A DNA stretch of 64,000 nt from assembly GCF_003339845.1 (NCBI RefSeq), contig NZ_PPTR01000004.1:167719-231718 (forward strand), given 5' to 3'. Shown here in pieces: positions 12,931-38,640 of this stretch. How positions within the stretch are numbered: the stretch's first letter is position 1; every line of letters starts with the position of its first letter. The position numbers were made by a program, and so were the translations under genes. Source of the DNA: Gordonibacter sp. 28C. Its GTDB lineage: Bacteria > Actinomycetota > Coriobacteriia > Coriobacteriales > Eggerthellaceae. Under the pieces are notes generated by a model, which saw only the letters and a list, made by a program, of their open reading frames with translations, ran no database searches and had not been told where the DNA came from.

Positions 12931-13082
12931 GTGTTTCCCTTCTACGGGTGCCGCCCGATTTCCGGGCGGCCTTCTCGGATATCTGCCGCCTGCCGGCGGC
13001 GGGCACGGGGCCGGCGAGTCGCTACCGGTCCCGCATCCGCCGACGGCAGGGCGCTAGGGCCCTGCCGCTGCCATATATGTAC

Positions 13083-13140
13083 CCAGTTATGCGGATGCGT
13101 AAACGCACATCTGCATACTTGTGCGGATGCGCGTTTACTT
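13083..13140 (-). promoter_or_regulatory. conserved island promoter/operator module, copy A (upstream of parA operon)
   Basis: TATGTACCCAGTTATGCGGATGCGTAAACGCACA… Read in the minus sense this is TGCGTTTACGCAT-N-GGGTACATATAT (-35 TTTACG, ~17-nt spacer, -10 TACATA). Confidence 0.5.
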
Positions 13141-13160
13141 ATTCTTGCCCGCCGGCGCCG

Positions 13161-13409
13161 CTATGCGCCGTATTCCGACGCCCTCGCGGCGCGATACGCG
13201 CGGCGCGTTTCGACCTTGCGGCAGCACTCCTTCCGTGCCGCCACCGTCCTCTCCGCCACGTCGTAGGCGTACGCGATGAGCGCGCCCGCCACCGGGAACA
13301 CGGCGCAGTTGATGTAGACATAGCTGTATGCGAGCATGAACCACATCCCGACGAGCCCCGCGACCAGCGCGGCGGCGGCGGCGACCTTCTCCCTTCCGCT
13401 CGGCTCCAT
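13161..13409 (-). CDS. small membrane protein (82 aa, 2 TM)
   Basis: Start MEPSGREK with an AGAGGGAAG RBS. Two hydrophobic helices. The longer ORF-track version runs into the promoter repeat. Confidence 0.5.
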   Translation of the reverse strand: MEPSGREKVAAAAALVAGLVGMWFMLAYSYVYINCAVFPVAGALIAYAYDVAERTVAARKECCRKVETRRAYRAARASEYGA

Positions 13410-13497
13410 TACTTCCCTCTTGCAACCGGCCATGACGGCCTCCTTCCGATATTCGGCGATCCCGCGCCGACGCGGTCGCGGCCTCCCTTGCCGCTGG

Positions 13498-13560
13498 TAT
13501 GTATGTACCCAGCTGCGCACATGCGTAAACGCACAAACACGTAAATGCGCACGTATGCGT
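13498..13560 (-). promoter_or_regulatory. conserved island promoter/operator module, copy B
   Basis: TATGTACCCAGCTGCGCACATGCGTAAACGCACAAACACG, ~90 nt upstream of the 13409 start. Confidence 0.5.
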
Positions 13561-13623
13561 CTGCGTAATTCGATAATTTGCCCAGCGGGCCGCCCGGACA
13601 CCGGTCGGCAGGCCCCTGGCCTG

Positions 13624-13692
13624 CGATTTCCATGGCCGGATGACCGGCGGGACCCCATCCGTCCCATAGGCAGCCGGGTGTGGGAAACGTGT
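13624..13692. repeat. ~70-bp conserved element R1 (paired with R2 at 14332-14400)
   Basis: GCGATTTCCATGGCCGGATGACCGGCGGGACCCCATCCGTCCCATAGGCAGCCGGGTGTGGGAAACG is ~90% identical to the copy 708 bp away. Confidence 0.6.
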
Positions 13693-13769
13693 GGAGACGG
13701 GCTACGGCATGAAAAAGCCCCGCCGTCTCCGGTGGGGCGATCACTTGAGTATGGGGTTGTACGGGTCGG

Positions 13770-14195
13770 CTAGAACGGGATGTCCTCGTCCGCAACCTCG
13801 ACGGCGGGAGCCTCGGGGACCGCATACTGCTGTCCACCATCAACCGCGGCAGCAGGAGACGCGGCAGGGCGGGAGTTCATGAACTCGATCTCGTCGACGA
13901 TGACCTCGAGCTTGCTGCGCTTCTGGCCGTCGCGCTCCCAGGAGCTATAGCGCAGCTTGCCCTCGATCGCGACCTTGCTCCCCTTGGAGATATAGCGGCC
14001 GACAGCCTCGGCGCGGGTGCCGAACATGGTACAGTCGATGTAATTGGGATAGTCCTCCCACTCGCCGGTCTGCGGGTTCTTTCGGCGATCGTTGACGGCG
14101 ATGCCGAACGAGAGCACCTGGGTGCCGGCCGCGGTGGCGCGGAGCTCGGGATCGCGGGTGAGGTTTCCGGTGATGTTGACTCGGTTGATGCTCAT
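13770..14195 (-). CDS. ssb: single-stranded DNA-binding protein
   Basis: OB-fold SSB signature (NRVNITGNLTRDPELR…KVAIEGKLRYSSWE) and an acidic C-terminal tip DEDIPF. Confidence 0.9.
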   Translation of the reverse strand: MSINRVNITGNLTRDPELRATAAGTQVLSFGIAVNDRRKNPQTGEWEDYPNYIDCTMFGTRAEAVGRYISKGSKVAIEGKLRYSSWERDGQKRSKLEVIVDEIEFMNSRPAASPAAAVDGGQQYAVPEAPAVEVADEDIPF

Positions 14196-14247
14196 TGGCT
14201 TCTATCCTTTCGGTTCCGACGGGGGGCCGATCCCCCCGCCTTCGTCG

Positions 14248-14310
14248 CCATGTATGTACCCAGATGCTCAGATGCGTAAGCGCATAGATGTGCGTTTGTG
14301 CGGCTATGTA
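14248..14310 (-). promoter_or_regulatory. conserved island promoter/operator module, copy C (ssb promoter)
   Basis: TATGTACCCAGATGCTCAGATGCGTAAGCGCATAGATGTGCG, 55 nt upstream of the ssb start. Confidence 0.5.
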
Positions 14311-14331
14311 TTGGGCTGGCACCGGAGCCCG

Positions 14332-14400
14332 GCGTTTTCCATGGCCGGATGACCGGAGGGACCCCATACGTCCCGTAGGCAGCCGGTTGTGGGAAACGCG
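14332..14400. repeat. ~70-bp conserved element R2
   Basis: Near-identical copy of R1. Same position relative to the promoter module (R → P → gene in the minus sense). Confidence 0.6.
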
Positions 14401-14449
14401 TAGCGATTCCTCCGGTTCGGTTCTCGCCCAGTTTGAATCACGGGGCGGT

Positions 14450-15803: not shown

Positions 15804-15963
15804 GCATGGCCATAGGCCGCCTGCTGCGCGGTGAGACCGCAGCGCGGGCGGTACCGCCCCGGATGCCCTCCCCGTTGGGATCGCAGGGCGGTATCCAGGG
15901 TGGGAGACGGCGGGGGTATCGCGCGCGTGGCGCGCGATACCGAGCGGGAGGGAGGTCCGGCAC

Positions 15964-16131
15964 GTGGGCGGATGCAGCAGGTTCGACGCCAAGGTCGTCC
16001 CCATAGCGGTCGAGACCGACCGAAAGTGCGGGCTCAACACCCCGAGGGCAATCGTGTGCGACGGGCGGCGCTTCGAGATCGCCAGGGTCGGCGCGACGCT
16101 GCCCTGCCCCAGCATGTTCGGCAAGGATTGA
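15964..16131 (+). CDS. possible small Cys-containing protein (55 aa)
   Basis: GTG start 8 nt after GGGAGGGAGG. Translation VGGCSRFDAKVVPIAVETDRKCGLNTPRAIVCDGRRFEIARVGATLPCPSMFGKD has 4 Cys. Weak support. Confidence 0.25.
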   Translation: MGGCSRFDAKVVPIAVETDRKCGLNTPRAIVCDGRRFEIARVGATLPCPSMFGKD

Positions 16132-16148
16132 GAAAGAGAGATGCCGCA

Positions 16149-16901
16149 ATGCGGAAAGACACCTACAGGATTGGCGACGGGACGTTCGCGTTCTCCCCCG
16201 CCGTGTTCGATTCGTTGCTAGGACACGGCGCCAAAGGCGCCGCCAGGATGCGGGAGCTCGCGGGCGCGATGCACGTCTCGATCTCATCGATCAAGGACTG
16301 GCGGCGCGGGACGCACGCTCCGAGCGACTTCGAGAAGGTCGAGGATATCGCCTGCTGGGCGCACATCGACGTCGCCGACCTCCTCATAGAATCAGGAGAT
16401 AGGACCATGGACGAAAAACTCACCGAAAACCAGCTGGATGTGCTCTGCGTGCTATGGAACCAGGCCTACGACTTCCTCGACCTGTGCGAGGAGACCGATC
16501 ATTTCGTCTGGCCGACTACAGACCTGCGCTGCGTGCCGGACTCGATTCTGCACGACATCAAGGTGAACCCGGAAGACGATAAGTCCCGTCCTCCCTGGGA
16601 GATCGGCACCGAGGACCTGTTCCTCCAGACGCTCGACGTGTACCTCCGCGCGTGCCGACGCGCGACCCCATATGTCGGGGAGAGCGATATCTTCGTCAGG
16701 CTCCTGGGCCTCTGCGACATCATGACCGAGACCGCCTTCGGCGAGGACGACGGCAAATGGCTGCCAGACCCGGATATGATTTTCGACCCGCATGAGGATG
16801 GATACGTCAGCCCGATGGAGGCCGCGGAGCTCAAGTGCAGGAAGCTGCTCGATGAGATCAGGAATGACCTGTTGGCGCTACGCCCGACGGCGGGTAAATA
16901 A
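16149..16901 (+). CDS. XRE-family helix-turn-helix transcriptional regulator with C-terminal domain
   Basis: MRKDTYRIGDG start. HTH LAGAMHVSISSIKDWRRG. Followed by a terminator. Confidence 0.7.
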   Translation: MRKDTYRIGDGTFAFSPAVFDSLLGHGAKGAARMRELAGAMHVSISSIKDWRRGTHAPSDFEKVEDIACWAHIDVADLLIESGDRTMDEKLTENQLDVLCVLWNQAYDFLDLCEETDHFVWPTTDLRCVPDSILHDIKVNPEDDKSRPPWEIGTEDLFLQTLDVYLRACRRATPYVGESDIFVRLLGLCDIMTETAFGEDDGKWLPDPDMIFDPHEDGYVSPMEAAELKCRKLLDEIRNDLLALRPTAGK

Positions 16902-17031
16902 GGCTAGTTCCGCCAGATAGCACGACGGCCCCGCCCTCGGAGGGACTGCGCAGCGATGATCGATTCCGAGTTCGCATATAAGCGTTCGACATGGCGATGA
17001 TTGATTGATTCCATATCCAGATTTCAAGACA

Positions 17032-17059
17032 GGGGCCGTTTTCGGCCCCGTCCTTTTCC
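17032..17059 (+). terminator. rho-independent terminator
   Basis: GGGGCCG-TTTT-CGGCCCC followed by GTCCTTTTCC. Confidence 0.55.
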
Positions 17060-17087
17060 CGAACCCGGTCCGGCGATTTTTCCGCGG

Positions 17088-17125
17088 CGTGCGTTTACGT
17101 TTCCCCTCAGGGGGTACAAGGACTA
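17088..17125 (+). promoter_or_regulatory. conserved island promoter module, plus-strand copy J
   Basis: TGCGTTTACGTTTCCCCTCAGGGGGTACAAGGA has the same TTTACG-N13-GGGTACA architecture, ~50 nt upstream of the 17173 start. Confidence 0.45.
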
Positions 17126-17172
17126 CCGAGCGGGCGGCATGGGGCCGCCCGGCGCGCATATGGGAGGACTAT

Positions 17173-17535
17173 ATGGAAACGCTCTTCGTGACGGAGTCGC
17201 GCGAGCTGCTGTTCACGGGAACCGAGGATATCGACGTGCGACCGCTCCATTCGCCGGTACTGCATTACGAGGGAGACAGCCGGGAGGTGGCACTGCGGGC
17301 GGCACACGAGGCCGCGGCGGCCTCCAGGGTCGAGGCCTGCCAGCGCGGTTTCGCCCGGTGGGTCACCACCGTGAGCGAAATCACGCTCGACGGCGAGGAG
17401 TTCACGGAAAGCGAGGAGACGGTCAACACCGTCGATCCGCTCGACCGCGTGCCCGAGCTGCGCACGCTCGCGCGCGAGGCGGCCGCGAGACACGCGGACG
17501 GGAAGATCATCCGCGATATCGCCGGGCATACGTAG
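17173..17535 (+). CDS. hypothetical protein (120 aa); frame continues in-frame past its TAG stop
   Basis: GGGAGGA RBS, start METLFVTESR. TAG at 17533-17535. Confidence 0.6.
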   Translation: METLFVTESRELLFTGTEDIDVRPLHSPVLHYEGDSREVALRAAHEAAAASRVEACQRGFARWVTTVSEITLDGEEFTESEETVNTVDPLDRVPELRTLAREAAARHADGKIIRDIAGHT

Positions 17536-17799
17536 CCGGTCGGATCCGCGCGGTGCGGCGGGGACATCTACAGCCTCTACCGCGTCGAGGGGTCGGCCTT
17601 CGGTGACTTCACGTGCTACCGGGTCGGACGCGCGCCCTACAACGGGACGCTCTACCTTCCCGCGGGGTTCCACGATTACGGCATCGCCACCCTGCGCGGG
17701 CTTTTCGCCGCGCTCGAGGGCGGACAGTGCGAATTCCTGTGCGAATACCAGGACGAGATCGATGGGGTCTATCACGGGCTCTTCGAGAAGAGGATCTAA
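17536..17799 (+). other. start-less 87-codon protein-like ORF in frame with the upstream gene (TAG-interrupted gene / possible readthrough or pseudogene)
   Basis: Frame PVGSARCGGDIYSLYRVEGSAFGDFTCYRVGRAPYNGTLYLPAGFHDYGIATLRGLFAALEGGQCEFLCEYQDEIDGVYHGLFEKRI contains no ATG/GTG/TTG codon. It has strong GC3 coding character. Confidence 0.45.
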
Positions 17800-17800
17800 G

Positions 17801-18244
17801 ATGAAGGGAACGGACATGCAGACCATCCACACCAAGGCAGGCTTCAAGGTGCTGCGCGAGAGCCTGGGGCTCTACCAGTCCGACGTCGCGCAGGCCGCGG
17901 GCGTCGACGTGAAGACCGTCAAGAACTGGGAGAGCCCGCGCCTGCCGCGGTGCCGCGCCACGGCCGAGGCATGGAAGTACCTCGAGAACCTAGCAGAAGT
18001 CCAGGACCGCGAGGTCGGGTGCTTGGTGGAGAAGATTGTCGGCGAGACGGACGTCAACCCCTACCCGCTCCCCTACTTCCGCGAGCAGGACTTAGCCGCG
18101 GAGGATGCGCGCGCGGCGCGGATCTCGAACGCCATGACCAGAAAGGTGGCCTTTGAGCTCACCAGGTTGGCCATCCCCTACGAGTTCCGCTTCGAGGAGG
18201 AGGCCGCGGACGATGAGCGGCTGAGCGAGATCCGGGATATGTAG
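17801..18244 (+). CDS. XRE-family HTH transcriptional regulator
   Basis: LGLYQSDVAQAAGVDVKTVKNWES is an HTH. AGAGGA RBS. 147 aa. Confidence 0.8.
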   Translation: MKGTDMQTIHTKAGFKVLRESLGLYQSDVAQAAGVDVKTVKNWESPRLPRCRATAEAWKYLENLAEVQDREVGCLVEKIVGETDVNPYPLPYFREQDLAAEDARAARISNAMTRKVAFELTRLAIPYEFRFEEEAADDERLSEIRDM

Positions 18245-19469: not shown

Positions 19470-19530
19470 GATGTGAGTCTACCCATATGCGCATGTACGT
19501 AAACGCATAGACGCGCATATACATATATGT
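19470..19530 (-). promoter_or_regulatory. conserved island promoter/operator module, copy D
   Basis: GAGTCTACCCATATGCGCATGTACGTAAACGCATAGACGCGCATATAC, just upstream of the 19446 start. Confidence 0.5.
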
Positions 19531-19552
19531 GTGGACGTGCGAGCGGGGCGGC

Positions 19553-20931: not shown

Positions 20932-21129
20932 GTCCGACCTTTCGCGCGGATGTGTACCGTCCCAGCTGTTTCTACCCCGTGCGCGGGAAGTCTTTCACTC
21001 GATTCGAGCCGGTGCGGGGGCATTTTTATCCGTCGAGTTTCGGTAGGGGCGTGTAAAGCGCGGCGGGGGCGGGTATCAAAGCTGCTGTGTATGCCAATTC
21101 CAATAAAGAGGTGGTCCATGTCCGACCCG

Positions 21130-22320
21130 ATCGCCGCGGCCGAAGCCGCCGGCAAAGCCCGCGATATCGCCAACCGCTTCGAGACCGCCGTATTCCTCAT
21201 CGCATACGGCATCGCCGAGAAGGACGGCCTCTACGAGGCCGACCCGCATAGGTATCCCTACAGCCAGGCATTCAGACACGGCATGAATATCCTCGCCGCG
21301 CTGTGCGCTGAGTGCTCCGACGATGCGGAAAAGCTGCTGCCGACGTTCAATGAGTCCGATTTCATCAGGAACAGCGCAGCGTCAGACGTGCGCGAGTGGA
21401 CGGCCCGGTGGCGCGACGAGTGCAGGAAAGCCGTCGAAGGGTGCCGGTCCATCGAGATCGGGCCCCTGGCGTCAGTAGACGGCGACTACTTCGCCGCGAC
21501 GTCGGAATGCTACGAGGTGCTGCGCTTTGCGGAAAACGACCTCTTGGGCGGCCATCAGGAACGCAGGGTGTATGAATTCCTCCGAGCCGGCACCCAGGAT
21601 CAATACGTGTACGGACGCAGGATGCTCATCCGCCACCCGCTGCTCACCTGGAACGAATACGTCAGGATCAAGACGGGGCTCGCCCTGGGCGACCCCGACC
21701 CCCTCGACCAGGGCGAAGCCGACACCATCGACCCGGTGTGGTTGCAGGAATTCGTCTCCATGGCCTACGAACCCGTCCCGGGCGCCGCAAAAGTATGCCC
21801 GAATTGCGGCTGGACGATGACCATGCGAGGCAAGCAGCCCCACTGCTCATCGGCGACGTGCGCCAAGGCCGTCACAGGCGATTTCGACAAGCTGGACAGC
21901 GTCGCGCACGACGCCTTCCGCCTATCCCGCGGCGTCATGCACTACATCTCTTCCCCCGGAAAGCTCGAGCTGGCGATCGCCGAGGCCGCAGCGGGCCTCG
22001 GTCTGAAATACGAAATGTGGCCCCTCAAGGACACCTGCGACATCCTGATCCATCTGCCGGACGGCCGACAGCTTGCCGTCGACGCCAAGGCATACGGCCG
22101 CGCCGAGCGGCTTGCCCGCGAGATAGAGGACGACACCGGCATCGCCCAGATGTGCGCGGACGAGGTGGCCTATGTCGTGCCGGACCAAGTCGAACGGGAC
22201 CATCCCGGATATCGCGCGCTATGCAATGCCGTCCTGCGCGGCAAGACCGGCTATTCATGCGAAACGCTGCGCAACTTCTCGAAACGACTCGATGCCGCCG
22301 CGAAGGGAGGCACGCGATGA
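21130..22320 (+). CDS. Zn-ribbon protein with PD-(D/E)xK-like nuclease motif; candidate pPIWI-RE-associated REase
   Basis: True start MSDPIAAAEAAG (AAAGAGGTGG RBS). CPNCGWTMTMRGKQPHCSSATC zinc ribbon. C-terminal …DTCDILIHLPDGRQLAVDAKAYGR… fits D…(D/E)xK. Its stop overlaps the next gene's start. Confidence 0.6.
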   Translation: MAAAEAAGKARDIANRFETAVFLIAYGIAEKDGLYEADPHRYPYSQAFRHGMNILAALCAECSDDAEKLLPTFNESDFIRNSAASDVREWTARWRDECRKAVEGCRSIEIGPLASVDGDYFAATSECYEVLRFAENDLLGGHQERRVYEFLRAGTQDQYVYGRRMLIRHPLLTWNEYVRIKTGLALGDPDPLDQGEADTIDPVWLQEFVSMAYEPVPGAAKVCPNCGWTMTMRGKQPHCSSATCAKAVTGDFDKLDSVAHDAFRLSRGVMHYISSPGKLELAIAEAAAGLGLKYEMWPLKDTCDILIHLPDGRQLAVDAKAYGRAERLAREIEDDTGIAQMCADEVAYVVPDQVERDHPGYRALCNAVLRGKTGYSCETLRNFSKRLDAAAKGGTR

Positions 22321-25300
22321 ACGAGCCGAATGATACAGCCCAGGAAGGCTTCGACCAGCTGAAGCGCAATCTCGAGGTGCGCTATCCCGAGGACAGCGAC
22401 CTATCCCTCGACGAGTTCCTGAATGTGGAGTCGCTGCTCGCGCTCGCGGTACGCGTATGCGGTCCCGGCGCCGATCCCCGAAAGGCCGACAGGCTCCTAT
22501 CGAACTACCAGCTCATCAGGCCCGAGACCATCGGCGCGGACGGCCACCTCATGCAGATGGCGCGCCGACACCTGTTCTCGCTGGCTTCATCCACGGCCTG
22601 GCGGCGACTGCTGGGCCTCTACGAGCGCGCGGAATATGAGCGGTACCGGTTCTTCGATATCGCCGACGGCGGAATGGCCCTGCGCGAGCACCCCCTTACC
22701 GGGATCGACCGCATGCCGATCTATATAGACCGCCTCCTCGGCGATGTCAAACTCTCCCATAAAAACGTGGTCGCGAGACCCAAAGGACGGTATTCCTACA
22801 CATGCAAGCCCGAGGCGACCGGCGATACCACGGTAACCGGATCGATCCGTTGGGTGACCATACCCGATGCCGTGCCGCCCCAAACGGGCAAGATTGACGA
22901 TATCCCCCGCAAGAGCAGGCGCCCGCCCATCGATATCACCCTCGACGAGCTCATCTCGACCGCGGACGAAGTCGGGGAGAAGACCGGAAAGACCCACTAC
23001 GCTGCCGTGCTCAGAAGGGTCAAGGACCAGGGGCTCCTCAAGCAGGCCGTCGGCGGCAGCACATCCGTCGCCGACGGCCTGCGCCTCGATGAGGTCGTGA
23101 GCCTCGTCGGCCTCGTCGGCGCCGGCAAGTCCGTCCTCGCCAACATGCTCATCGTCTGCCTCGCGAAGCGCGGCCTGCGCGCGGTATCCCTGCTCAACTC
23201 GGTATCGGACGTGATGGAAAGCGTCGTCCTGCTTCGCGAGGCGGGAATCAGCGCCTCGCCCCTGGTGTCGCGCGGCAGGCGCATCGAACGGCTCGACGAG
23301 TTCTTCGACCACGATGACTCCATGCTCCTCGGCCATTCCGCATCCAAATACCTGGAGACCGCCTGCATCATGGACGGGCTCTCCTCTTCCGATTCCGAGG
23401 CCTGCGGATACGGCAGCACGCCATGCCGCGGCCTCCGGTCCAAGAAGGGCGGCGCGAACTCATGCCCGTACTGGGACGTGTGCCCATCGCAGGCCATGGC
23501 CCGCGAGTCCCTGACATCCGACGTCGTGGTCACGACTCCCACCGGCTTCGCCACCATGATCGTCGGAAGGGAGCGCAAGGCATTCTTCGAGGAGGCCCTT
23601 CAGCAGTTCGACGTCGTCCTGTTCGATGAGGCGGACCGCGTGCAGGCGCAGCTCGACGGCTGCTTCGCCCCTAGCATGAGCTTCCAGGAGCTCATCCGCA
23701 ACGCCGCCGACCCGACAGCCGCAGCCATGAAGCGGCGCCCGGACGACAAGATGAGGGACTTCAACGAGGAGCTTTTCTACGACCTGCGCCAGAAATCCGA
23801 GCCCGTCGCGAAGGCGCTGCTCAAATCCGTCAGGGACGACCGCGTGGCGAAATGGCGCATCGTCAAGGACGAGGCGTTCACGTCACTCTCGCTTCTGAAC
23901 GACCTCCTGGAGCAGGGCCTTCCCAAACAGGTTTACGAGGATGCCGACAAACTCATCAACCCCTATAGATTCGAGATTGCCAAGAAGAGCCTCGATGGCG
24001 GCGATGCGGCCCTCAACAAGCTCTCGCAGGCGGTCGCGACCTCCTGCGAGGGCATCGACGACGACACCCACAGCTACTCGTTGAACGAATACCTCGCTGC
24101 ACGCGGATGCTCGGAGCTTCCCGACGAGCTGCGGACCAGGTTCTCCTTCGCCCTCAAGGTCATCCGGTTCGACTCGTATCTGCGCGAACTCGCCTCCGCG
24201 CAGGACCTCCTCAGCTTCAAGGACGATTCCGTCGACGAGCTGTACAACTTCCTCAAGTTCAGCTACACGCGCCAGCAGCACTATCTCCCCAACTCGCTGA
24301 TCGGCAACATCTTCGGGATGAAGCTCGACGGCAACGACCTCAGGCTTTTCCGGCAGTTCGCCTTCGGGCGGGCCTTCATGTGCTCGCTGCCCTGGCTCGA
24401 TACCGACCCCGCCGGGGCGGCGCTGGGGCCGCACGTGCTCCTGCTCTCCGGTTCGAGCTGGGAGCCCGGCTGCCTGCAATACCACGTGAACAGGCCGGTC
24501 GACTACCTCCTCGAGGCGGAGCCGTGGAAGGCGGCCAAGCTCTCCACCTCGACCGTGAGGGACCTCGGCATCGAGCAGAACGTGTCCGGCAGCGCCGCCG
24601 AGATGCGTTCCGGCAACCTCGGCATCGTCCTATCCCAGACCATGGCCACGCTGAGGGACGAACTCGACGCGGATGGCGCGGGAAAGGCCCTGGTCATCGT
24701 GAACAGCTACCGGGAGGCCGAGGACGCACGCGACCGCATCGAGCAAGAGTTCCGACGCAAGGGCCAGGCAATCAAGGTCGCGGCCCTGGTGCGCAACAAC
24801 CACGAGCACAGGGAGCACTTCGTGCCCCGGAGCGAAGTCTACAAGTTCTGCGATCATCCGGCCAAAGTGCTCGTGGCGCCGGCCATGGCCATCGAGCGCG
24901 GATTCAATATCGTCGACCGCGGCGGCCATGCCGTGTTCACGAGCCTCATCTTCTCGGTGCGCCCGATGGGCACACCGCACGACCTCGGCGGGCGATACCG
25001 CAAGCTCAACGGCCTCATCGAAAGGGAGGTCGGCGACTACCCGGCCAATCCCGGGGAGTTCGCGACCGAGGTCAGGGCCTCCGCCTGGCGCACATGGAAG
25101 ACCATGGAGCGGGACGAGAACCTTCCCATGGGCGCATGGAGGACCATGGGAAGGCAATTCCTCGTAGACGACGCGATCTCCACGCTCATGGTCACGATCA
25201 TCCAGATATTCGGGCGCCTGGCGAGGCTTGCCGATAAGGAGAGGCCCGCGCCGCATGTCTATTTCGCCGATGCGGCCTTCCGCGGCGGCGACGGGAAGCT

Positions 25301-25439
25301 CTCGTTCAGGACCCTGGAAGAGCTTGGCGCCTACATGGAACGCCTCATGCACGATAGCGACCAGCCGGAGGTCGCCAAAGCCCTTTACGGGCCGTTCTAC
25401 GAGTCATTCAGGAAAGGAATCGGAAATGTCGGACTCTAA
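22317..25439 (+). CDS. DinG/XPD-family superfamily-2 helicase with Fe-S cluster insertion
   Basis: Walker A GLVGAGKS and Cys cluster C-x13-C-x6-C-x12-C-x5-C between the motifs. VVVTTPTG, DEAD box (VLFDEADRV). 1041 aa. Start ATGA overlaps the upstream stop. Confidence 0.85.
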   Translation: MNEPNDTAQEGFDQLKRNLEVRYPEDSDLSLDEFLNVESLLALAVRVCGPGADPRKADRLLSNYQLIRPETIGADGHLMQMARRHLFSLASSTAWRRLLGLYERAEYERYRFFDIADGGMALREHPLTGIDRMPIYIDRLLGDVKLSHKNVVARPKGRYSYTCKPEATGDTTVTGSIRWVTIPDAVPPQTGKIDDIPRKSRRPPIDITLDELISTADEVGEKTGKTHYAAVLRRVKDQGLLKQAVGGSTSVADGLRLDEVVSLVGLVGAGKSVLANMLIVCLAKRGLRAVSLLNSVSDVMESVVLLREAGISASPLVSRGRRIERLDEFFDHDDSMLLGHSASKYLETACIMDGLSSSDSEACGYGSTPCRGLRSKKGGANSCPYWDVCPSQAMARESLTSDVVVTTPTGFATMIVGRERKAFFEEALQQFDVVLFDEADRVQAQLDGCFAPSMSFQELIRNAADPTAAAMKRRPDDKMRDFNEELFYDLRQKSEPVAKALLKSVRDDRVAKWRIVKDEAFTSLSLLNDLLEQGLPKQVYEDADKLINPYRFEIAKKSLDGGDAALNKLSQAVATSCEGIDDDTHSYSLNEYLAARGCSELPDELRTRFSFALKVIRFDSYLRELASAQDLLSFKDDSVDELYNFLKFSYTRQQHYLPNSLIGNIFGMKLDGNDLRLFRQFAFGRAFMCSLPWLDTDPAGAALGPHVLLLSGSSWEPGCLQYHVNRPVDYLLEAEPWKAAKLSTSTVRDLGIEQNVSGSAAEMRSGNLGIVLSQTMATLRDELDADGAGKALVIVNSYREAEDARDRIEQEFRRKGQAIKVAALVRNNHEHREHFVPRSEVYKFCDHPAKVLVAPAMAIERGFNIVDRGGHAVFTSLIFSVRPMGTPHDLGGRYRKLNGLIEREVGDYPANPGEFATEVRASAWRTWKTMERDENLPMGAWRTMGRQFLVDDAISTLMVTIIQIFGRLARLADKERPAPHVYFADAAFRGGDGKLSFRTLEELGAYMERLMHDSDQPEVAKALYGPFYESFRKGIGNVGL

Positions 25440-28008: not shown

Positions 28009-29859
28009 CTATCCCTGCCGCCAATTCGCCTTGCGGGTCTTTCGACCGGCGGCGGTGGACCCTTTCGCCACTCCCTTCCGCTTCCCAGGACGGGAGCCGG
28101 ACGAATTCGATTGACGACGGGTGGAGCCCAAGTCGAAGCCGGAGTTTTTCGCGATCCGCGCCTCGACCTCGGAACGCCGGATGCCCAGTTCCGATGCGCT
28201 GACGCGATAACCGCCCTCCTTGCGGACGACATAGAGCTCATGTGGGTCGTAGTCCCAATCGAGTACGTACCCGGCAAGGAGCATCTTGGCATCCAGATGG
28301 TCCTTGGACATCGCGCCGGAGAGCGCATCCTTGAGGGCGAAGGTGGCTCGAGTCACGATATCCGCCCGGATCTTCTCCTCGAGGGTTCTAGCCGGCCTTT
28401 CGGTCCCCGGTTCCTGGGTACCTCCCTTGCTGTTCTCCAGGGCGCCTTCCAGGGCGAGAGGCGTGGGGGCGTCGGGGCCCCTGCCGTCCATGAGGTCTCG
28501 GATGTAGGCGCGGACCCGCGACTCGTAGCGGCGCGGGCACTCGATTTGGACCGGCTCCTCCATCCTGTGCTCGAGGGAATCGTAGAACTCCACGACCTCG
28601 CGGCTGGCGATCAGGCGGTTCGGCTCGATCTTGGGGAACACGGTGAGGCCGGCGGCGGAGCGCACGCGGGACAGGCCGACGTACAGCTGGCCCTCGGCGA
28701 AGACCTTCGTGTGGACGCAGCAGGCATCGAACGTCAGGCCCTGCGACTTGTGGATGGTGATGGCGTAGGCGAGCTTGAGCGGGATCTGGGTATAGGTACC
28801 CACGACGGCGGTCTTGACCCTGTTGACGGGCCTGCCCTCCTCGTCCATCTCGACGATGGCCTCGGACTTGTTGATCTCCCATCTATGCCGCTCGATGCTG
28901 ACCTTCTCGTCCGCGCCGTCGAACTTGACCGTCACGGCGTCCGCGGACGCGTCGGTGACGGTGCCCTGCGTGCCGTTGACGTAACCCTCCTGAGGGCTGT
29001 TCACGAGCGACATCACGCGGGCGCCGCGGCACAGGACGATCCTCTCCGGCGCCATCTTGTCGCCGTTTGACACCGTGCCTGTCGCGGCGGCCGCGAACTC
29101 GACCTTCGGGGCGTCGAGCGCGTCGACGTTCTCGCGGTTGATCGAATCGGCGATGCGGTTGTTGGCACACAGCACCAGCGTGTCCTTCGGCAGGTAGGCA
29201 CGGGAGCTCTTCGAGTGCGCGTTGAAGTAATCGAGGCACGACGCGTCGCCGACGCGGGCGCGGTTCAGGTTGTCGATGAAATCGGGGTCGGATTGGCGCA
29301 CGACCGTCTTGAGGACGTGCGGCTCGAAATCGAAGCCGGTCCAGTACCTCGACTTGAAGCACCAGCCCTGGAGGTTTCCGGGATAGAACTTCATCAGCAG
29401 CGCGGAGTCGCGGTCGGTCACGACCGGCGGTAGCTGGAAGAAGTCGCCGACGAGGACCACCTGCTTCGCGCCGTTGCGCGTCATGGACTGGGAGATCATC
29501 CCCATCACGTGGTCGAACAGGTCGATGCGGCACATCGAGATCTCGTCGATGATGATTACCTTCGCGGCGTCGAGCACCTTGCGGGACCCCTTGGGGCCAT
29601 CGGGGGCGCAGACCCCCGGCGCGATTTTCAGCGTGCGGTGGATCGTCGAGCCGTCCGTGAGGTTCAGCGCGGCGATGCCGGTGGGCGCCAGGGCGAGGAA
29701 ATCGACGTTGCGCGCCTTCAGGTCCGATATGAAGGCGTTGAGCACGTAGCTCTTACCCGTGCCGGCGTTGCCCGAGAGAAACACGTTCCTCCCGTCCCTC
29801 AGCGCCCTCAGCGCCTCGGCCTGCTCCGGTGTAAATCGGTCACCGTCTGCCATTTCCAT
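28009..29859 (-). CDS. Pif1/RecD-like superfamily-1 DNA helicase (TraA/RecD2-type)
   Basis: Walker A LSGNAGTGKSYVL, Walker B VIIIDEISM, motif AITIHKSQGLTFD. Basic Ser/Arg/Lys-rich C-terminal tail. Confidence 0.9.
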   Translation of the reverse strand: MEMADGDRFTPEQAEALRALRDGRNVFLSGNAGTGKSYVLNAFISDLKARNVDFLALAPTGIAALNLTDGSTIHRTLKIAPGVCAPDGPKGSRKVLDAAKVIIIDEISMCRIDLFDHVMGMISQSMTRNGAKQVVLVGDFFQLPPVVTDRDSALLMKFYPGNLQGWCFKSRYWTGFDFEPHVLKTVVRQSDPDFIDNLNRARVGDASCLDYFNAHSKSSRAYLPKDTLVLCANNRIADSINRENVDALDAPKVEFAAAATGTVSNGDKMAPERIVLCRGARVMSLVNSPQEGYVNGTQGTVTDASADAVTVKFDGADEKVSIERHRWEINKSEAIVEMDEEGRPVNRVKTAVVGTYTQIPLKLAYAITIHKSQGLTFDACCVHTKVFAEGQLYVGLSRVRSAAGLTVFPKIEPNRLIASREVVEFYDSLEHRMEEPVQIECPRRYESRVRAYIRDLMDGRGPDAPTPLALEGALENSKGGTQEPGTERPARTLEEKIRADIVTRATFALKDALSGAMSKDHLDAKMLLAGYVLDWDYDPHELYVVRKEGGYRVSASELGIRRSEVEARIAKNSGFDLGSTRRQSNSSGSRPGKRKGVAKGSTAAGRKTRKANWRQG

Positions 29860-30164
29860 ATCCCGTCATCCGTTCGACCAGTAACGGGGAATTGATACCC
29901 GCGCAAGCGAAAAAATATACGCTGAACGGGTGTTTCGCAGAAACTATAGGAAGTTTTGGAAGGCGGCGCGGATATGCTTCCGCGCATTTCCCCGCGCGCC
30001 CGTATACCCCGATGCGCAAACGGGTACGATAGCCTCAGAATGATGTGGGTCCCGCGCAGCCGAACGGCTTGTCTTTCCCATGCGGGCATCGCGGATTTCT
30101 TTCATGGGTGGGACTTCGGTCCGAGAACAGGCCGCGATCTCGTAAGGGGTCGCGGCCTGTTCAT

Positions 30165-30300
30165 CTGTGTGTCTATGTCTTTATGCGTGCGCGCATATGT
30201 GCAATGGTGCTGGTGTGTATATATGCGTGTGCGCGTATGTGCCTCGGCGTATGTATGCCGATGTGCGGATATGCATCCGGACAGATGTGCCGGTGATTCA
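30165..30300 (-). promoter_or_regulatory. alternating purine-pyrimidine (TG/CG) tract region related to island promoter module, copy I
   Basis: GTGTGTCTATGTCTTTATGCGTGCGCGCATATGTGC…GTGTGTATATATGCGTGTGCGCGTATGTGC…TATGCCGATGTGCGGATATGCA. Preceded by a 13-bp-stem hairpin at 30121-30158. Confidence 0.4.
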
Positions 30301-33220: not shown

Positions 33221-33379
33221 TTCCGTTCTCCATTCCTTCCGAAATATTCCGGGGCGCGCCCTCCCTCGGCGCTGTTCATTTCCCCTTAGGTGGTTATTCC
33301 CCGTATCTGCCGGCTTAGACACCGGATAGGGAAAACCGTTGGAAAACAGGGCGCCCACCAGGATGGGAGCCTGATGGGC

Positions 33380-33500
33380 GCGGATGCGGTCGTGCGTTTA
33401 TGTATACGTGCGTAGGTATGCCGGTGCGTATTTGTGCTGGCGCGCAGGTATGCGGGTATGCAACTGCGTATGTGTGCGGATGTGCGATCGCGGAACCTAC
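33380..33500 (-). promoter_or_regulatory. island promoter-related GC/TG alternating tract, copy G
   Basis: GCGGATGCGGTCGTGCGTTTATGTATACGTGCGTAGGTATGCC…GTATGTGTGCGGATGTGCG, upstream of the 33220 start. Confidence 0.4.
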
Positions 33501-33715
33501 AGGAGCGTGTCGAAACCGGGCCTGCCTAGATTCCGGCGAATGTTGCCGGTCGTGAGCTCGACGTGCTGGCGGCCGTCGGCGCCGAAGACGAGGTTCGTGG
33601 CGCCCGCCGCGGGGACCACCGTCTCCACCTGTCCCGTCGTGAGGTCGTACCGCATGTTGCCGACCTGCTGCTCGATATGCACCGTGCCGTCGGGCTTCAA
33701 GACGTTTCCAATCAT
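33497..33715 (-). CDS. hypothetical small protein (72 aa)
   Basis: Start MIGNVLKPDG with an AAGGGGA RBS. Gly/Thr-rich. The longer ORF-track version runs into promoter repeat H (33725-33805). Confidence 0.5.
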   Translation of the reverse strand: MIGNVLKPDGTVHIEQQVGNMRYDLTTGQVETVVPAAGATNLVFGADGRQHVELTTGNIRRNLGRPGFDTLL

Positions 33716-33836
33716 GGCACGTCCCCTTTTACGCATATATGCGGATGCGGATGTGTGGATATGTGCGGATGCGCGGTTGAGCGTTTGTGTGTGTATGCCA
33801 AAGCGCCTGCGGGCGCATCCGCACCCCCCCATGGTA

Positions 33837-34871: not shown

Positions 34872-34941
34872 CTTGAAACTCCATTCCGTTGTCCGGGCAC
34901 ATTCGGCCCATGCGCGTCCTTCCGCAAGATGCTAACGCCGG

Positions 34942-35286: not shown

Positions 35287-35625
35287 GTCCTCGATCTTCT
35301 CCACGGGAAACCCCAATCCCTCAGGGAGGGCGCGCGGCCGTGCGCCCTCGTATGTGTGTATCTGTGCAGGTATGCGCATGCGTAAACGCGTAGATGTGCG
35401 GATACGTGTGTGCATACCCATGCGAACGTCAGCGAGGAAGCCCGCGGATGAGCGAGGCGAAGTCTGCATCGACGCGCGAGCGGTCCAGCTCCCAGAGGCC
35501 GGCGATGAAGTCGAGCAGGACCCTCACCGTCCCGGTGCGCTCGGGTCGCGGGAGGCGCGGCACCAGCAGGACGACGGAGTAGAGGGCCTGCTCATAGCTG
35601 CGCCCCTCCTGGGGGGCACGGCGGC

Positions 35626-36657
35626 TCATCGCCCGGCCCCCTCGGCATCGCAGGGCGCCATGCGGCGGTCCGGGCCGTCCATCTTGACGCGCTCGGTCAT
35701 CTCGGCCAGGCGCGAGACGATAGCCAGGGCGTCCTCCTTGCGGCCGTACTCCGACAGCACCGCGGCGAGGCCAGCCTGGGTGTACTGGCTTGTCACGATC
35801 GTGGCGCGCTCGGCCTCGTAGCGGCCGTTGACGATCTGGAACAGCTTCGCGAGCACCCACTGGGTCGAGGAGTCCTTGCCCAGGTCGTCGATGATCAGGA
35901 TCGGGACGTTCACGTACCTGCGGATTACGTCGGCCTCGCTGTCGCCGCCCTTGTCGAAGGTCGAGCGGAGCTCGGTCATGAGGTCCGCCGAGACGACGAA
36001 CCTGACGCCGTGCTTGGGCCTGCCCTTCGGGACGGGCCGGTACGCCCAGTTGCCGAAGCGGGGATCGAGGCGCGAGCCGGCGTAGTCGTAGGCGATACGG
36101 CACGCCATCTCGGTCTTGCCGACCCCGCGCGGACCGTAGATGTACAGCCCGCCGCCGTGCGCGAGGCGCGCGTCGTAGGCATGCTCCGGGGCGGCCACTC
36201 CCTCGGCGATGCGGCGGGCGAAGCGCGGCGGGATGCCGGTCTTGCGCACGACCGCCTCATGGAACGCGGGATCGGTCGCGGCGAGGGCGGCTACGTCCGC
36301 AATCTCGAGCGGAGGCAGGGCGCCGCCGACGGGAAGCGGCGCGGCTGTTGCAGCCGGGGCCTCGGGCACGGGCGCCGCTGGCACCGGAGTCCGAACGGGC
36401 GCCGCGGCGGGGGCCGGGTGCTCCGGCTCGAGGTAATGCGGCCCCATCTCGTGCCACGCGTCCGCCTCCGCCCTCCAATCGAGCACCGGCGTGCCGTCCG
36501 CGCGCCGCCAGGCGCGGGCATCGTGGTATGCGTAGAAGAAGTTGCCGTAGAAGGCGTTGACGGAGCCGCGGTCGTCGTAGCCCTTCCCGCGGACGTAGGC
36601 CTCGACTTCCTCGAGCGCGGGCCTTTTCGGCCTCGCCTGCGCTTGCGTGTCGTTCAT
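35626..36657 (-). CDS. DnaC/IstB-like AAA+ helicase-loader ATPase
   Basis: Walker A YIYGPRGVGKTEMA, Walker B ILIIDDLGKD. GGAGGGAG RBS. Lies 20 nt downstream of the rep gene stop. Confidence 0.85.
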   Translation of the reverse strand: MNDTQAQARPKRPALEEVEAYVRGKGYDDRGSVNAFYGNFFYAYHDARAWRRADGTPVLDWRAEADAWHEMGPHYLEPEHPAPAAAPVRTPVPAAPVPEAPAATAAPLPVGGALPPLEIADVAALAATDPAFHEAVVRKTGIPPRFARRIAEGVAAPEHAYDARLAHGGGLYIYGPRGVGKTEMACRIAYDYAGSRLDPRFGNWAYRPVPKGRPKHGVRFVVSADLMTELRSTFDKGGDSEADVIRRYVNVPILIIDDLGKDSSTQWVLAKLFQIVNGRYEAERATIVTSQYTQAGLAAVLSEYGRKEDALAIVSRLAEMTERVKMDGPDRRMAPCDAEGAGR

Positions 36658-36679
36658 CTCGGTTCTCCCTCCGTCTGAG

Positions 36680-38068
36680 CTAATCGTCGTTGAACTCGCT
36701 GAAATCGCTGTCGGCGGCCACGCGCTCGGCGACGCTCATGGCCCTCTTCGCGCCAGACGGGCCGGACTTACGGGCGGAGCGCGGCGCGGGCTTGCGGCGC
36801 CAGGTGTTCACGACGTTCTTCCATCGGACGATCGGCACGCCGCCCGCGCGGACCCAGCCGGTGGCCTCGTAGTAGTCGAAGAACTCGTCGGGGTCGATCA
36901 CGCGGTAGGCGGGATTGTCCGGGTCGGGGGCGTCATAGCCCTTCTCGTGCACGTACTTTCGGACCTGCTCGCGGGTCGGCGCCTTCGACGGGGCGGCCTT
37001 CTCCTCGGCTGCGGCCACGGCGCCGGAATCGACGAGATCGGCCCTCAGGTCGTAGAACCTCAGGCCGTTTCCGGCGGCGAGGAACTTGGGCAGCGACATG
37101 ATGTAGCGCCCGTCGGTGTGCGATGCCGCGTACTCGCGGCGGTAGGTGTCGTAGGCGCGACCGATGCGCGGAAGCGTCCAGCCGTCCGCGAGGGCGCGGG
37201 CATAAGCCTCGGCGACGTCGGCGAAGACCTCCGCCTTGCCGATGGACATGCGCATGAGGGCAAGCACCTCGGCGTTTGGGACCGGGACCTCCGTCTCGAG
37301 CCCAAGGCCGGCCTCCGATGCGACCCTCACGACCGTGACCGAGTCGCCCGCAGCCTTCGACATGACCGGGTCTTCGACAGACGGCAGCGCGCCCGCGCGC
37401 CCTCTCCCACTAACATCAATAACAACATCCTTGTTAGTGTCGCAAAAATTGGTACACGGTGAAATCGTTTCCCCAGTTGGGCCCGTGTACCAATTTTTGG
37501 TACACGGTGAATCTAGTTGCAAACTAACGTTAGTTTGGTCGCCCGTGTACCAATTTTTGGTACACGGCGAATCCTGCGGGTTGTTGATAACCTCGTTTTC
37601 AACCCCCTCCCCCGGCAAGTTTTCAACAGCGCCCGCCCCAGTCGATTTCGAGTTATCGACAGGCACGAAACGGCGCTCCTCGGGGATCTCGGCATTGACC
37701 ACGTAACGGTTCGAGAGATAGCGCCCTTGGCCCTGCGCGCGGCCCTGGTGCACGCTGATGTAGCCGCACTCGACCAGGGTTCGGCGGTGGCGGTAGTAGG
37801 TGTTGCGCGACATCGCGAGGTGGGTGCAGATCGTGTCCACGGACGGGAACAGCGAATGGGTGCCCGCGCCGGCATGGGCGCAGAAGTAGGCGTAGACGCC
37901 CTTGGCCGACGACGACAGGCGGGTGTCCTCGGTCGCCTTGGCCGAGACGATGCCGAAGCCGCGCTCCATGAGGTCGCCGCCGAAGACGACGACCGCGCCG
38001 TCGCGGTCCAGGATCTCGAACGTCTCGTCGAGCTCGTCGCGGGTGCGGCCGGCGGGCTGTGCCGCCAT
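36680..38068 (-). CDS. replication initiator protein with N-terminal winged-HTH (DnaD/RepA/phage O-like)
   Basis: ATG with an AAAGGAG RBS (MAAQPAGRTR…). wHTH KGVYAYFCAHAG…DTICTHLAMSRNTYYRHRRTLVECGYISV. The central linker is encoded by iteron DNA (SPCTKNWYTG repeats). Confidence 0.75.
   Translation of the reverse strand: MAAQPAGRTRDELDETFEILDRDGAVVVFGGDLMERGFGIVSAKATEDTRLSSSAKGVYAYFCAHAGAGTHSLFPSVDTICTHLAMSRNTYYRHRRTLVECGYISVHQGRAQGQGRYLSNRYVVNAEIPEERRFVPVDNSKSTGAGAVENLPGEGVENEVINNPQDSPCTKNWYTGDQTNVSLQLDSPCTKNWYTGPTGETISPCTNFCDTNKDVVIDVSGRGRAGALPSVEDPVMSKAAGDSVTVVRVASEAGLGLETEVPVPNAEVLALMRMSIGKAEVFADVAEAYARALADGWTLPRIGRAYDTYRREYAASHTDGRYIMSLPKFLAAGNGLRFYDLRADLVDSGAVAAAEEKAAPSKAPTREQVRKYVHEKGYDAPDPDNPAYRVIDPDEFFDYYEATGWVRAGGVPIVRWKNVVNTWRRKPAPRSARKSGPSGAKRAMSVAERVAADSDFSEFNDD
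37440..37570. repeat. iteron/palindrome cluster inside rep gene: candidate origin of replication
   Basis: Two perfect 25-bp palindromes CCGTGTACCAATTTTTGGTACACGG (37483-37507, 37543-37567) plus a half-site at 37445-37460. An 18-bp palindrome CAAACTAACGTTAGTTTG sits at 37517-37534. Further IRs (CACTAACA…TGTTAGTG) lie at 37410-37440. Confidence 0.55.
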
Positions 38069-38084
38069 GCCGCGCTCCTTTGCG

Positions 38085-38453
38085 CTACTCACGGCACTGC
38101 ACCCCCTCCCGCACGACCTCGGCGGGGATCGGGACCATGCAGAGCTCCCCGTCCCGGTCCTCGCCGTAGGGCGTCACGATGTCGACGATGTAGCCGCCGC
38201 GCTCGAGCGCGGCCAGCGCCTCGTCGTAGTCGCGGCGCGGCAGGCCGGCCTCGGCCGCCGCGATGTCGCGCGCCGGGCACTCGATCGCCACCGACATGGG
38301 ATCGCGCGCCACGATGCAGCAGAAGACCGACTTCTGCTCGAGCGTGAGGTCGCCGTCGTCGAAGATCGGGCGGATACGCCGCGCCCAGAACCTATCGCCG
38401 ACCGTCATCCTCGCCGTGCCGGCCTGATTCCCGGCGGAATCTTTCCTTCCCAT
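38085..38453 (-). CDS. hypothetical protein (122 aa)
   Basis: Start MGRKDSAGNQ after GGAGGGA. Immediately upstream of rep. Confidence 0.55.
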   Translation of the reverse strand: MGRKDSAGNQAGTARMTVGDRFWARRIRPIFDDGDLTLEQKSVFCCIVARDPMSVAIECPARDIAAAEAGLPRRDYDEALAALERGGYIVDIVTPYGEDRDGELCMVPIPAEVVREGVQCRE

Positions 38454-38499
38454 ATGCCATCCCTCCATGGTCATCCATCGCGGGCCCAGGCCCGCATCC

Positions 38500-38640
38500 T
38501 GTGTCTGTATCTACCCAAATGTGCAGATGCGCAATCGCACAAATACGTAAAAACGAAAATGTGCGGTTGCGTATATGCGCATATGCGTGCATGCGTATGT
38601 ATGCTGATGTGTGGGATGAAAAAGGCACAGGCCGTTTGGA
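38500..38640 (-). promoter_or_regulatory. conserved island promoter/operator module, copy E
   Basis: TATCTACCCAAATGTGCAGATGCGCAATCGCACAAATACGTAAAAACG…GCGTATATGCGCATATGCGTGCATGCGTATGTATGC. Confidence 0.5.

Follow-up and report, generated by a model that had tools for sequence, protein, structure and literature searches.

The 64,000-nucleotide stretch of Gordonibacter sp. 28C analysed here (contig NZ_PPTR01000004.1, positions 167,719 to 231,718; referred to as the window) carries a mobile element in which approximately 100 short boxes are grouped into nine intergenic arrays (A1 to A9) between positions 13071 and 38614. The repeat unit is an 8-bp near-palindromic box, R-T-G-Y-G-Y-R-t or approximately ATGCGCAT, arranged head-to-tail with 8 to 17 in-register boxes in each array. 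These arrays are probably binding platforms for a protein, for which the best candidate is a small, predicted ribbon-helix-helix (RHH) protein encoded directly downstream of a parA gene. An initial annotation of this DNA had described at the same places a promoter/operator module of approximately 35 bp in ten or more copies. The unit is instead the 8-bp box, as the periodicity runs beyond the module, and the modules number six good copies and one variant.

Unit and Periodicity of the Arrays

When the regions are printed out, the similarity between them extends past approximately 35 bp and repeats every 8 bp. In the profile of the stacked units, T occupies position 2 in 79% and G occupies position 3 in 80% of the units, and 99% have a pyrimidine at position 4. 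The near-palindromy is due to the T of position 2, which pairs with A/G at position 7, and to the C/T of position 4, which pairs with G/A at position 5. Many units interrupt the alternation of purine and pyrimidine at position 8.

An unbiased test of the period was provided by lag autocorrelation in 64-nt windows across the stretch, with lags divisible by 3 set aside. Self-identity of at least 0.5 was recorded for 194 windows at lag 8, and for no more than 36 at any other lag not divisible by 3. Seven of the nine lag-8 peak segments fall within regions listed by the initial annotation and an eighth overlaps one of those; the ninth (60468-60545) is outside the island and apparently arises by chance. 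A position-weight scan of six in-register units returned exactly nine arrays that outscore all of 30 dinucleotide shuffles (36-47 bits, the best shuffle reaching 16), and found no further array elsewhere in the 64-kb window. Scores over three to four units are bimodal, the arrays having at least 17-20 bits and all other sites at most 11. As the model was trained on the nine arrays, their own scores are circular. This does not apply to the lack of further arrays, to the outcome at lag 8 or to the arrays detected in sequences outside the training set. Chained units number 9, 9, 8, 9, 17, 14, 10, 10 and 14 in A1 to A9, with a single phase slip (-2, in A8).

Less tolerant methods do not recover the arrays. 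Tandem Repeats Finder sees only array fragments because the units are too degenerate, and statistics on the spacing of exact k-mers or hexamers (TGYRCA, CAYRTG) were uninformative because of their strictness. Coding-sequence periodicity is rejected as the source of the repeat, given that the arrays lie between genes and that their period is not divisible by 3. Recognition sites of 8 bp for an FtsK/TraB-type translocase were also considered and rejected, as the window revealed no translocase of this kind. Rfam at gathering thresholds gives no match in the window, so that neither the arrays nor the 78-nt repeat described below correspond to a known RNA.

The arrays are rich in perfect purine-pyrimidine alternation. 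The runs at 38568-38604 (37 nt), 30213-30242 (30 nt), 19511-19533 (23 nt) and 30182-30203 (22 nt) sit inside A9, A5 and A4, and 12 of the 17 alternating runs of at least 14 nt in the window fall in arrays. The longest run in shuffled sequences has a mean of 16 nt, the largest being 22. The alternating tracts inside A9, A5 and A4 could form Z-DNA.

Location of the Arrays

All nine arrays are intergenic and lie on the minus strand in front of minus-strand genes. The description of the sites as intergenic, element-specific and co-oriented with the downstream minus-strand genes is thereby upheld, and the position-weight scan found no box array in the 25-kb chromosomal flank. Six of the arrays (A1-A4, A8 and A9) have a 31-nt module as their gene-side end.

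The first three arrays place 26 boxes within 1.25 kb, beside parA. A1 (13071-13142; 9 boxes, module 13076-13106) is 146 nt upstream of the parA ATG at 12930, A2 (13497-13568; 9 boxes, module 13502-13532) is 69 nt upstream of an open reading frame (ORF) for a 90-aa membrane protein (13161-13433), and A3 (14248-14311; 8 boxes, module 14253-14283) is 58 nt upstream of ssb (13770-14195). A4 (19471-19542; 9 boxes) has its module at 19476-19506 in the GGGTAGACT variant and is approximately 39 nt upstream of a membrane-protein ORF that starts at approximately 19437. A8 (35340-35417; 10 boxes with the phase slip), whose module at 35359-35389 is degenerate (CTGCACAGATA), is found upstream of an ORF of 124 aa starting at approximately 35316. 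A9 (38503-38614; 14 boxes, module 38508-38538) includes the 37-nt alternating run and is found 34 nt upstream of an operon encoding a 129-aa ORF, a Rep-like protein with an HTH_36 domain and a DnaC/IstB-like protein. A site resembling an intrinsic terminator (38649-38623) immediately precedes A9.

The remaining arrays lack the GGGTACATA end of the module. A5 (30157-30292; 17 boxes) begins directly behind the stop of a 166-aa gene, approximately 300 nt upstream of a Pif1-like helicase gene (28009-29859). A6 (33384-33495) contains 14 boxes, and a terminator-like hairpin (33381-33351) comes after it, not before. A7 (33729-33808; 10 boxes) abuts the ribosome-binding site of a 72-aa ORF (33497-33715). 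A5, A6 and A7, together with an array at 5630-5727 of a related metagenomic contig (L081), occupy no clear promoter position.

GC-rich stem-loops of 7-12 bp stand directly downstream of several arrays (13020-13075, 14198-14253, 30105-30160, 33335-33390 and 38455-38510) as the start of putative leaders; they fold better than shuffled sequences only after A5 (z = -4.6) and A6 (z = -3.8). Just distal to A2 and A3, a 78-nt segment occurs twice (13620-13697 and 14329-14406) with 88% identity. This segment is a long imperfect inverted repeat, for which the plus-strand fold is significant in the second copy only (-45 kcal/mol, z = -4.0). An Eggerthella relative (L011) conserves the segment despite the divergence of the neighbouring spacer.

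The Gene-Proximal Module

The module follows the pattern GCGTTTACG-N13-GGGTANAYA. With up to three mismatches it matches six times in the window, always on the minus strand (13076, 13502, 14253, 19476, 35359 and 38508), with a chance expectation of 0.17 and none of 100 shuffles reaching six. The shared sequence that had been reported at 13083-13140, 13498-13560, 14248-14310, 19470-19530, 35340-35430 and 38500-38640 corresponds to these six matches. The exact form, GCGTTTACG-N10-16-GGGTACATA, has two matches against an expectation of 0. Distances from module to start codon are 34-146 nt, in agreement with the 30-150 nt first given, and for most of the six modules a GC-rich hairpin comes next and then the start codon.

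Other sites listed as copies are of mixed nature. Those at 30165-30300, 33380-33500 and 33725-33805, taken for looser copies, are true arrays without the GGGTACATA end. Unit scores identify 20940-20965 and 7790-7830 as non-members, the latter region holding a different 10-bp tandem at 7814-7835. The plus-strand copy at 17088-17125 does have GCGTTTACG and GGGTACA, with a spacer of 12 and no array; this stand-alone variant (17091-17121, plus strand) reads GCGTTTACG-N12-GGGTACAAG and lies in a segment absent from some relatives. The segment of approximately 1.2 kb at 16126-17315, which contains the variant, is lacking in one relative (L001); other relatives join at approximately 16118-16126 of the window, with approximately 158 bp of extra sequence of their own. 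The module pattern has no match in IMG/VR, and its three matches in JGI metagenomes are all due to chance and without arrays.

A sigma-70-type promoter with a spacer of approximately 17 nt had been proposed for the module. Its position and orientation fit such a promoter; the spacer is 16 nt, however, TTTACG and TACATA agree with TTGACA and TATAAT at 4/6 and 3/6 positions, the last -10 position is A and not T, and a strict sigma-70 consensus scan recovered no module. The hexamer TTTACG also forms the junction of two boxes, and in the second array of the Eggerthella relative it has changed to TATACG and is still a good box, so part of the apparent conservation of a ‘-35’ may reflect the box code. 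A promoter at the modules is nevertheless likely in view of the invariant CTGGGTA, the co-orientation with the genes, the terminator-like site before A9, and the hairpin and ribosome-binding site downstream. The near-palindrome GCGTAAACGC, first described as a single operator, is the junction of the adjacent boxes ATGCGTAA|ACGCACAT within an array of 8-17 boxes, which spans from approximately -90 to beyond the -10-like element.

ParA and the Candidate Binding Protein

The gene pair beside A1 comprises a small ParA of the Walker type, 182 aa long (12382-12930, minus strand), and a 99-aa ORF directly downstream (12083-12382, minus strand), the candidate for the array-binding protein. The ParA lacks a helix-turn-helix (HTH) at its N-terminus, as in type Ib partition systems. 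It matches the Pfam families CbiA (1.6e-14) and AAA_31 (4.5e-14) with coverage from residue 1, and its PDB matches include Soj and ParF. The ATG of the 99-aa ORF overlaps the TAA stop codon of parA (TAATG), and relatives with 59% ParA identity have the same arrangement. The small ParA without HTH, the small gene directly downstream and the presence of A1 upstream of the par operon are all features of the type Ib class.

The 99-aa protein has a basic, disordered N-terminus (MARTKK) and a low-complexity linker, followed by HRLSVIVPDDLYWQLKEYLVEHRREGYRSASDLMRSLLEEHL, a strand-helix-loop-helix pattern. A C-terminal strand-helix-helix (RHH) is predicted at residues ~53-98. The AlphaFold2 model consists of an extended segment followed by two helices (pLDDT 84-89) with NikR as the best Foldseek match. 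The only PDB sequence match is a CopG-family RHH protein (E 0.2), and in Pfam the domain scores best with RHH_5 (E 0.0056), followed by RHH_1 (E 0.018). Each of these lines is sub-threshold; all agree in predicting that the C-terminus folds as an RHH domain. A HMMER search of this domain against 1.84 billion representatives gave seven matches at E <= 0.001, which belong to its own family or are spurious (one repetitive protein), and tblastn of the protein against plasmids gave no match. The RHH domain is a sequence orphan, for which no characterised homologue was reached.

Three island proteins had been suggested for gel-shift tests on the motif. The product of 12083-12382 is the best candidate among them, while the HTH-type proteins fit contiguous 8-bp palindromes poorly.

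Maintenance of the Arrays in Related Elements

A ParA-based scan of GTDB genomes finds the element in Collinsella spp., Gordonibacter pamelaeae and an Eggerthella sp., with ParA proteins 96-100% identical; G. pamelaeae CCUG 55131 (locus L009) is one of the carriers. In 10 of the 11 loci of this first group, which comprise three genera, A1-A4 are at the same positions; the eleventh locus ends before them. The metagenomic contig L081 carries A5-A9. Beyond the end of homology (window position 39323) this contig encodes an integrase and a type IV secretion system coupling protein and has two further arrays (5630-5727 and 6571-6676), which brings the fuller element to at least 11. One of the two extra arrays is flanked by convergent gene calls, a place unsuited to a promoter.

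The sequence of the arrays is no better conserved than its surroundings, with identities between relatives of 0.69-1.00 against 0.82-1.00 for the flanks. Unit number and chain score are, on the other hand, retained for all nine arrays. Unit numbers in the window and in relatives are 9/9, 17/17, 14/14 and 10/10, the departures being A6 (14 against 15) and A3 (8 against 9).

A6 is the array most diverged from its counterpart in L081 (33384-33495 against L081 14996-15107). The two differ by 27 substitutions (21 transitions and 6 transversions) and by two indels of exactly 8 bp, whereby one unit is lost at one place and one gained elsewhere. The scores are 78 bits in the window and 86 bits in L081, compared with 53 +/- 7.5 bits after equal random substitutions (P <= 0.001). 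In this simulation the same number and type of substitutions were applied in the window-to-L081 direction, independently of the training set, and 0 of 2000 replicates reached the observed score. In the diverged spacer upstream of ssb in the Eggerthella relative, GCCGCACA is replaced by ATTGCGTA and CTGAGCAT by TTACGCAT, all alternative variants of the box.

As judged from these alignments, the changes argue for selection which acts on an 8-bp code and not on a particular sequence. The retention of the pattern despite this turnover is evidence against a neutral minisatellite and likewise against a duplicated promoter that drifts. A limited literature search on mobile elements of Coriobacteriia gave no description of these arrays; one preprint on an E. 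lenta plasmid turned up, in which the element is not clearly described and arrays are not mentioned.

A Sister Family with a Different Box

A second group of loci encodes ParA proteins 58-59% identical to that of the window. These are found on high-coverage Collinsella aerofaciens contigs of approximately 20-37 kb, which are probably plasmids. Upstream of parA and two other genes in this group, 8 is the strongest lag. The boxes read kTmAYATG (e.g., GTCATATG) and form in-register runs of 4-7 units, with a TTTAC(A) hexamer at the end. The shuffle maximum is also exceeded by weaker sites that had no part in the training. Box sites of this group are located at 8295-8366, 8676-8731 and 9867-9978 of locus L015 and in other loci (L012-L080). 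The probable plasmids additionally contain four TCTAGA palindromes at 11-bp spacing (16530-16570) and 22-bp AACCCATAG iterons (11520-12030).

Word-index and profile searches identify only two types of β-strand in the RHH family, namely HRLSVIVP in the window and VQLSVYVP in the 59% group, and the N-terminal tail is conserved between them. The architecture is thus common to both families, whereas the core of the box differs (TGCGCA against CAYATG), together with the residues predicted to face the groove (Arg/Ile against Gln/Tyr; Arg55 and Ile59 in the window's protein). This single comparison of two families is suggestive of a box specificity that follows the β-strand. In one database protein (P0025, locus L089), the tail at the N-terminus is that of the 59% group and the RHH domain at the C-terminus is that of the window. 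An exchange of modules or a chimera of the assembly would explain this; the short contig starts at the gene.

Comparison with Known Systems

The arrays are of a known kind, in that RHH centromere-binding proteins double as repressors on tandem short repeats. In the characterised partition examples, a small ParA gene is followed directly by a small RHH gene, with an array upstream of parA (PMC3130281, PMC9499535, PMC3074162). ParG of TP228 binds 5′-ACTC-3′ boxes with 4-bp spacers, eight in OF and 12 in parH (PMC3130281). The ParF-ParG pair resembles that of the window in its order, a small ParA-family ATPase and then a small RHH protein whose N-terminal tail is flexible; for the window, this fold and tail are a prediction. 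Both systems have an 8-bp periodic array upstream of the operon; in TP228 this consists of direct and inverted boxes, each bound by one dimer with cooperativity, and serves as operator and centromere (PMC3130281). Unlike the ACTC boxes with their AT-rich spacer, the boxes of the window have a 6-bp palindromic core, TGCGCA. The nine arrays are also spread over 25 kb of a chromosomally embedded element of Coriobacteriia instead of a single locus, and no sequence similarity to ParG was detected.

The omega protein of pSM19035 is an RHH partition protein with a ParA partner which is also a global repressor. It binds arrays of 7-10 heptads overlapping the copS, delta and omega promoters and requires at least four contiguous repeats (PMC9499535). 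The nine arrays front different operons, but the promoters here are proposed from their context, with none recovered by the strict sigma-70 scan. Its heptad is a non-palindromic WATCACW, in contrast to the 8-bp palindromic RTGYGYRt, and its three promoters (six sites) compare with nine to at least eleven arrays of up to 17 units. The 99-aa protein shows no sequence homology to omega, having no PDB sequence match to it and no relatives outside its own family. ParB of pCXC100, from the actinobacterium Leifsonia xyli, binds nine 9-bp repeats. These are uninterrupted short direct repeats upstream of par and are bound cooperatively (PMC3074162). That system differs in its 9-bp direct repeats (AGNTGGAAA) and its single centromere, and a multi-operon regulon is not described for it.

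In its box, the element resembles the system of a chromosomal repressor. The metboxes of MetJ are tandem 8-bp palindromes (AGACGTCT), and the structure of Somers and Phillips from 1992 reportedly has one RHH dimer on each box with dimer-dimer contacts between adjacent boxes. MetJ differs in acting on 2-5 boxes in a chromosomal metabolic regulon, with S-adenosylmethionine as co-repressor and no ParA partner. KorB is a large HTH protein of the ParB family on single 13-bp palindromes. The comparison with KorA/KorB (IncP) in the initial annotation is apt in its logic, by which a partition protein also serves as global regulator and co-represses many of a mobile element's operons. In anatomy the element follows the type Ib RHH centromere-binding proteins (ParG, omega): the arrays are made of 8-bp boxes and no ParB/KorB-like domain occurs among the island proteins scanned. 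The element differs from known cases in placing a MetJ-like 8-bp palindrome in a partition context, in scale, in its orphan protein and in its setting, an integrated inter-genus element of gut Coriobacteriia.

Proposed Mechanism and Alternatives

The reading favoured here, with somewhat better than even confidence, is that all nine arrays are platforms for the 99-aa RHH protein, the partner of ParA, and have operator as well as centromere roles. Contiguous repeats of 7-9 bp with one dimer on each are the RHH mode of binding, which supports a binder of this class. The two-stranded β-ribbon of one RHH dimer would enter the major groove of each 8-bp box at its TGCGCA core. Neighbouring dimers would be in contact, so that 8-17 dimers could coat 64-136 bp cooperatively. 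At the six arrays with a module, this coat would cover TTTACG-16 nt-TACATA, occlude RNA polymerase and shut down the operon behind it. The sets repressed in this way would be parA and the RHH gene, the small membrane protein, ssb, the other membrane protein, a pair of 124-aa and 344-aa proteins, and the rep operon. The regulator would thus control its own synthesis together with the maintenance and replication genes. The idea of one regulator co-controlling the island agrees with this, as an element-encoded regulator acting on many operons appears to be the most economical reading. The A1-A3 cluster would serve as a type Ib centromere, at which the N-terminal tail of the RHH protein activates ParA. 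A5-A7 and the array at L081 5630-5727 could be extra centromere sites, roadblocks or unrecognised promoters. In a bolder and rather doubtful extension, the RHH protein would polymerise on approximately 100 boxes in 9-11 arrays, some of them away from promoters (between convergent genes or in 3′ regions), and act as an element-wide silencer or insulator and as a multi-site centromere for an element that replicates and partitions when excised. The alternating tracts of 20-37 nt would then undergo supercoiling-dependent transitions which modulate occupancy, in a chromatin-like layer of control over the whole element that goes beyond ordinary operators.

The arrays, their period, placement and retention in relatives and the parA-RHH gene pair are observed in the sequence; binding, repression, the centromere function and the transcription starts are inferred. 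A different binder is an unlikely alternative to the 99-aa candidate. The island encodes several DNA-binding proteins, including Xre-type HTH proteins (15831-16901 and 17603-18244) and a NikA-like protein with RHH-type domains (6990-7748), and for many of its proteins Pfam gives no match; the binder could also be a small protein that is not annotated, or a conserved host factor of Coriobacteriia. A classical HTH dimer, however, needs half-sites approximately 10 bp apart, which misfits contiguous 8-bp palindromes repeated up to 17 times. Proteins of the NikA type act at oriT, and the mob operon is preceded by a different repeat (7814-7835). The restriction of arrays to the element across three host genera, with none in the chromosomal flank, points to a binder encoded by the element and not by the host. 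Repeat arrays of type Ib also sit directly upstream of parA, as A1 does.

The model of the initial annotation, in which a sigma-70 promoter of approximately 35 bp is bound by one dimer at the single operator GCGTAAACGC, is considered improbable; on this reading, the remaining similarity would consist of drifted promoter duplicates. It does account for the six modules conserved over 31 nt, co-oriented with genes and 34-146 nt from start codons, for the terminator-like site before A9 and for the module at 17091 that stands without an array. It does not account for a periodicity of 8 bp reaching 40-100 bp past the module, nor for the three arrays without a module, and the strict promoter scan returned no module. 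The boxes turn over while their pattern is kept, as would not be expected of drifted duplicates, and the indels are exact 8-bp units. Still less probable is that the arrays are structural DNA, as Z-DNA or a sensor of supercoiling, or neutral minisatellites formed by 8-bp slippage. The purine-pyrimidine runs of 37, 30, 23 and 22 nt in A9, A5 and A4 and the 8-bp indels between relatives are in keeping with these proposals. Alternation, however, follows automatically from the juxtaposition of ATGCGCAT-like palindromes and many units break it at position 8, and the A6 simulation indicates that the pattern is maintained against mutation. With regard to slippage, unit numbers are nearly constant among relatives, unlike those of a hypervariable minisatellite, and the units are degenerate rather than recent expansions.

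Other Features of the Element and the Window

Gene calls based on GC content at third codon positions, together with Pfam, place the mobile element from before approximately 1600 to approximately 39323. In addition to the small ParA and the 99-aa ORF, its genes include those for a MobA/VirD2 relaxase, the NikA-like protein, SSB, two HTH proteins on the other strand, the Pif1-like helicase, a flotillin and a second SSB-like protein. Its replication genes are those of the Rep-like HTH_36 protein and the DnaC/IstB-like ATPase. Genes to the right of the element are chromosomal in appearance (SpoU methylase, GGDEF, Ada/AlkA and molybdopterin oxidoreductases). Megablast of 13000-37900 against the PLSDB plasmids gave no match, and ARAGORN found no tRNA in the window.

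A pPIWI_RE defence module is present at 21738-27951 as plus-strand cargo inside the element. It encodes proteins of 1233 aa (domain Z) and 907 aa (pPIWI_RE), the second having X, MID and RNase H domains. Inside the Rep-like HTH_36 ORF (36680-38092), at 37433-37573, there are three iteron-like repeats of 33 nt with 48/60-nt spacing (GCCCGTGTACCAATTTTTGGTACACGGTGAATC), whose core is palindromic. They are a candidate replication origin and, being a separate repeat, led to the rejection of Rep iterons as the identity of the box arrays. The 10-bp tandem at 7814-7835 (GTTTAAACCG, 2.2 copies) is upstream of the NikA-like/relaxase operon and unrelated to the 8-bp arrays, and may mark an oriT or the promoter region of mob. 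Outside the element there is a 47-bp tandem repeat of 2.3 copies with 96% matches (53234-53340), a perfect 32-bp repeat of 1.9 copies (59412-59473) and, near a HipA-like/HTH gene, a 21-bp palindromic repeat GATTGTCATATGACAATCAAG of 2.4 copies (52926-52976).

Significance

The Coriobacteriia (Eggerthella, Gordonibacter and Collinsella) are medically relevant gut bacteria. To our knowledge, there are almost no genetic tools for them and the regulation of their mobile elements is unstudied. The element described here passes between three genera, with a defence module (pPIWI_RE) as cargo. Should the proposed binding not hold, the arrays would still be an unexplained and strongly maintained 8-bp periodic feature of DNA. 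If it does hold, one small RHH protein would control replication, partition, ssb and other operons through an 8-bp code, which would be the largest regulon so far for a protein of the omega/ParG style. The box code could then be compared with the β-strand between sister families (TGCGCA with HRLSVIV and CAYATG with VQLSVYV). The same parts would provide a compact and portable repressor/operator and partition cassette for vectors in these organisms.

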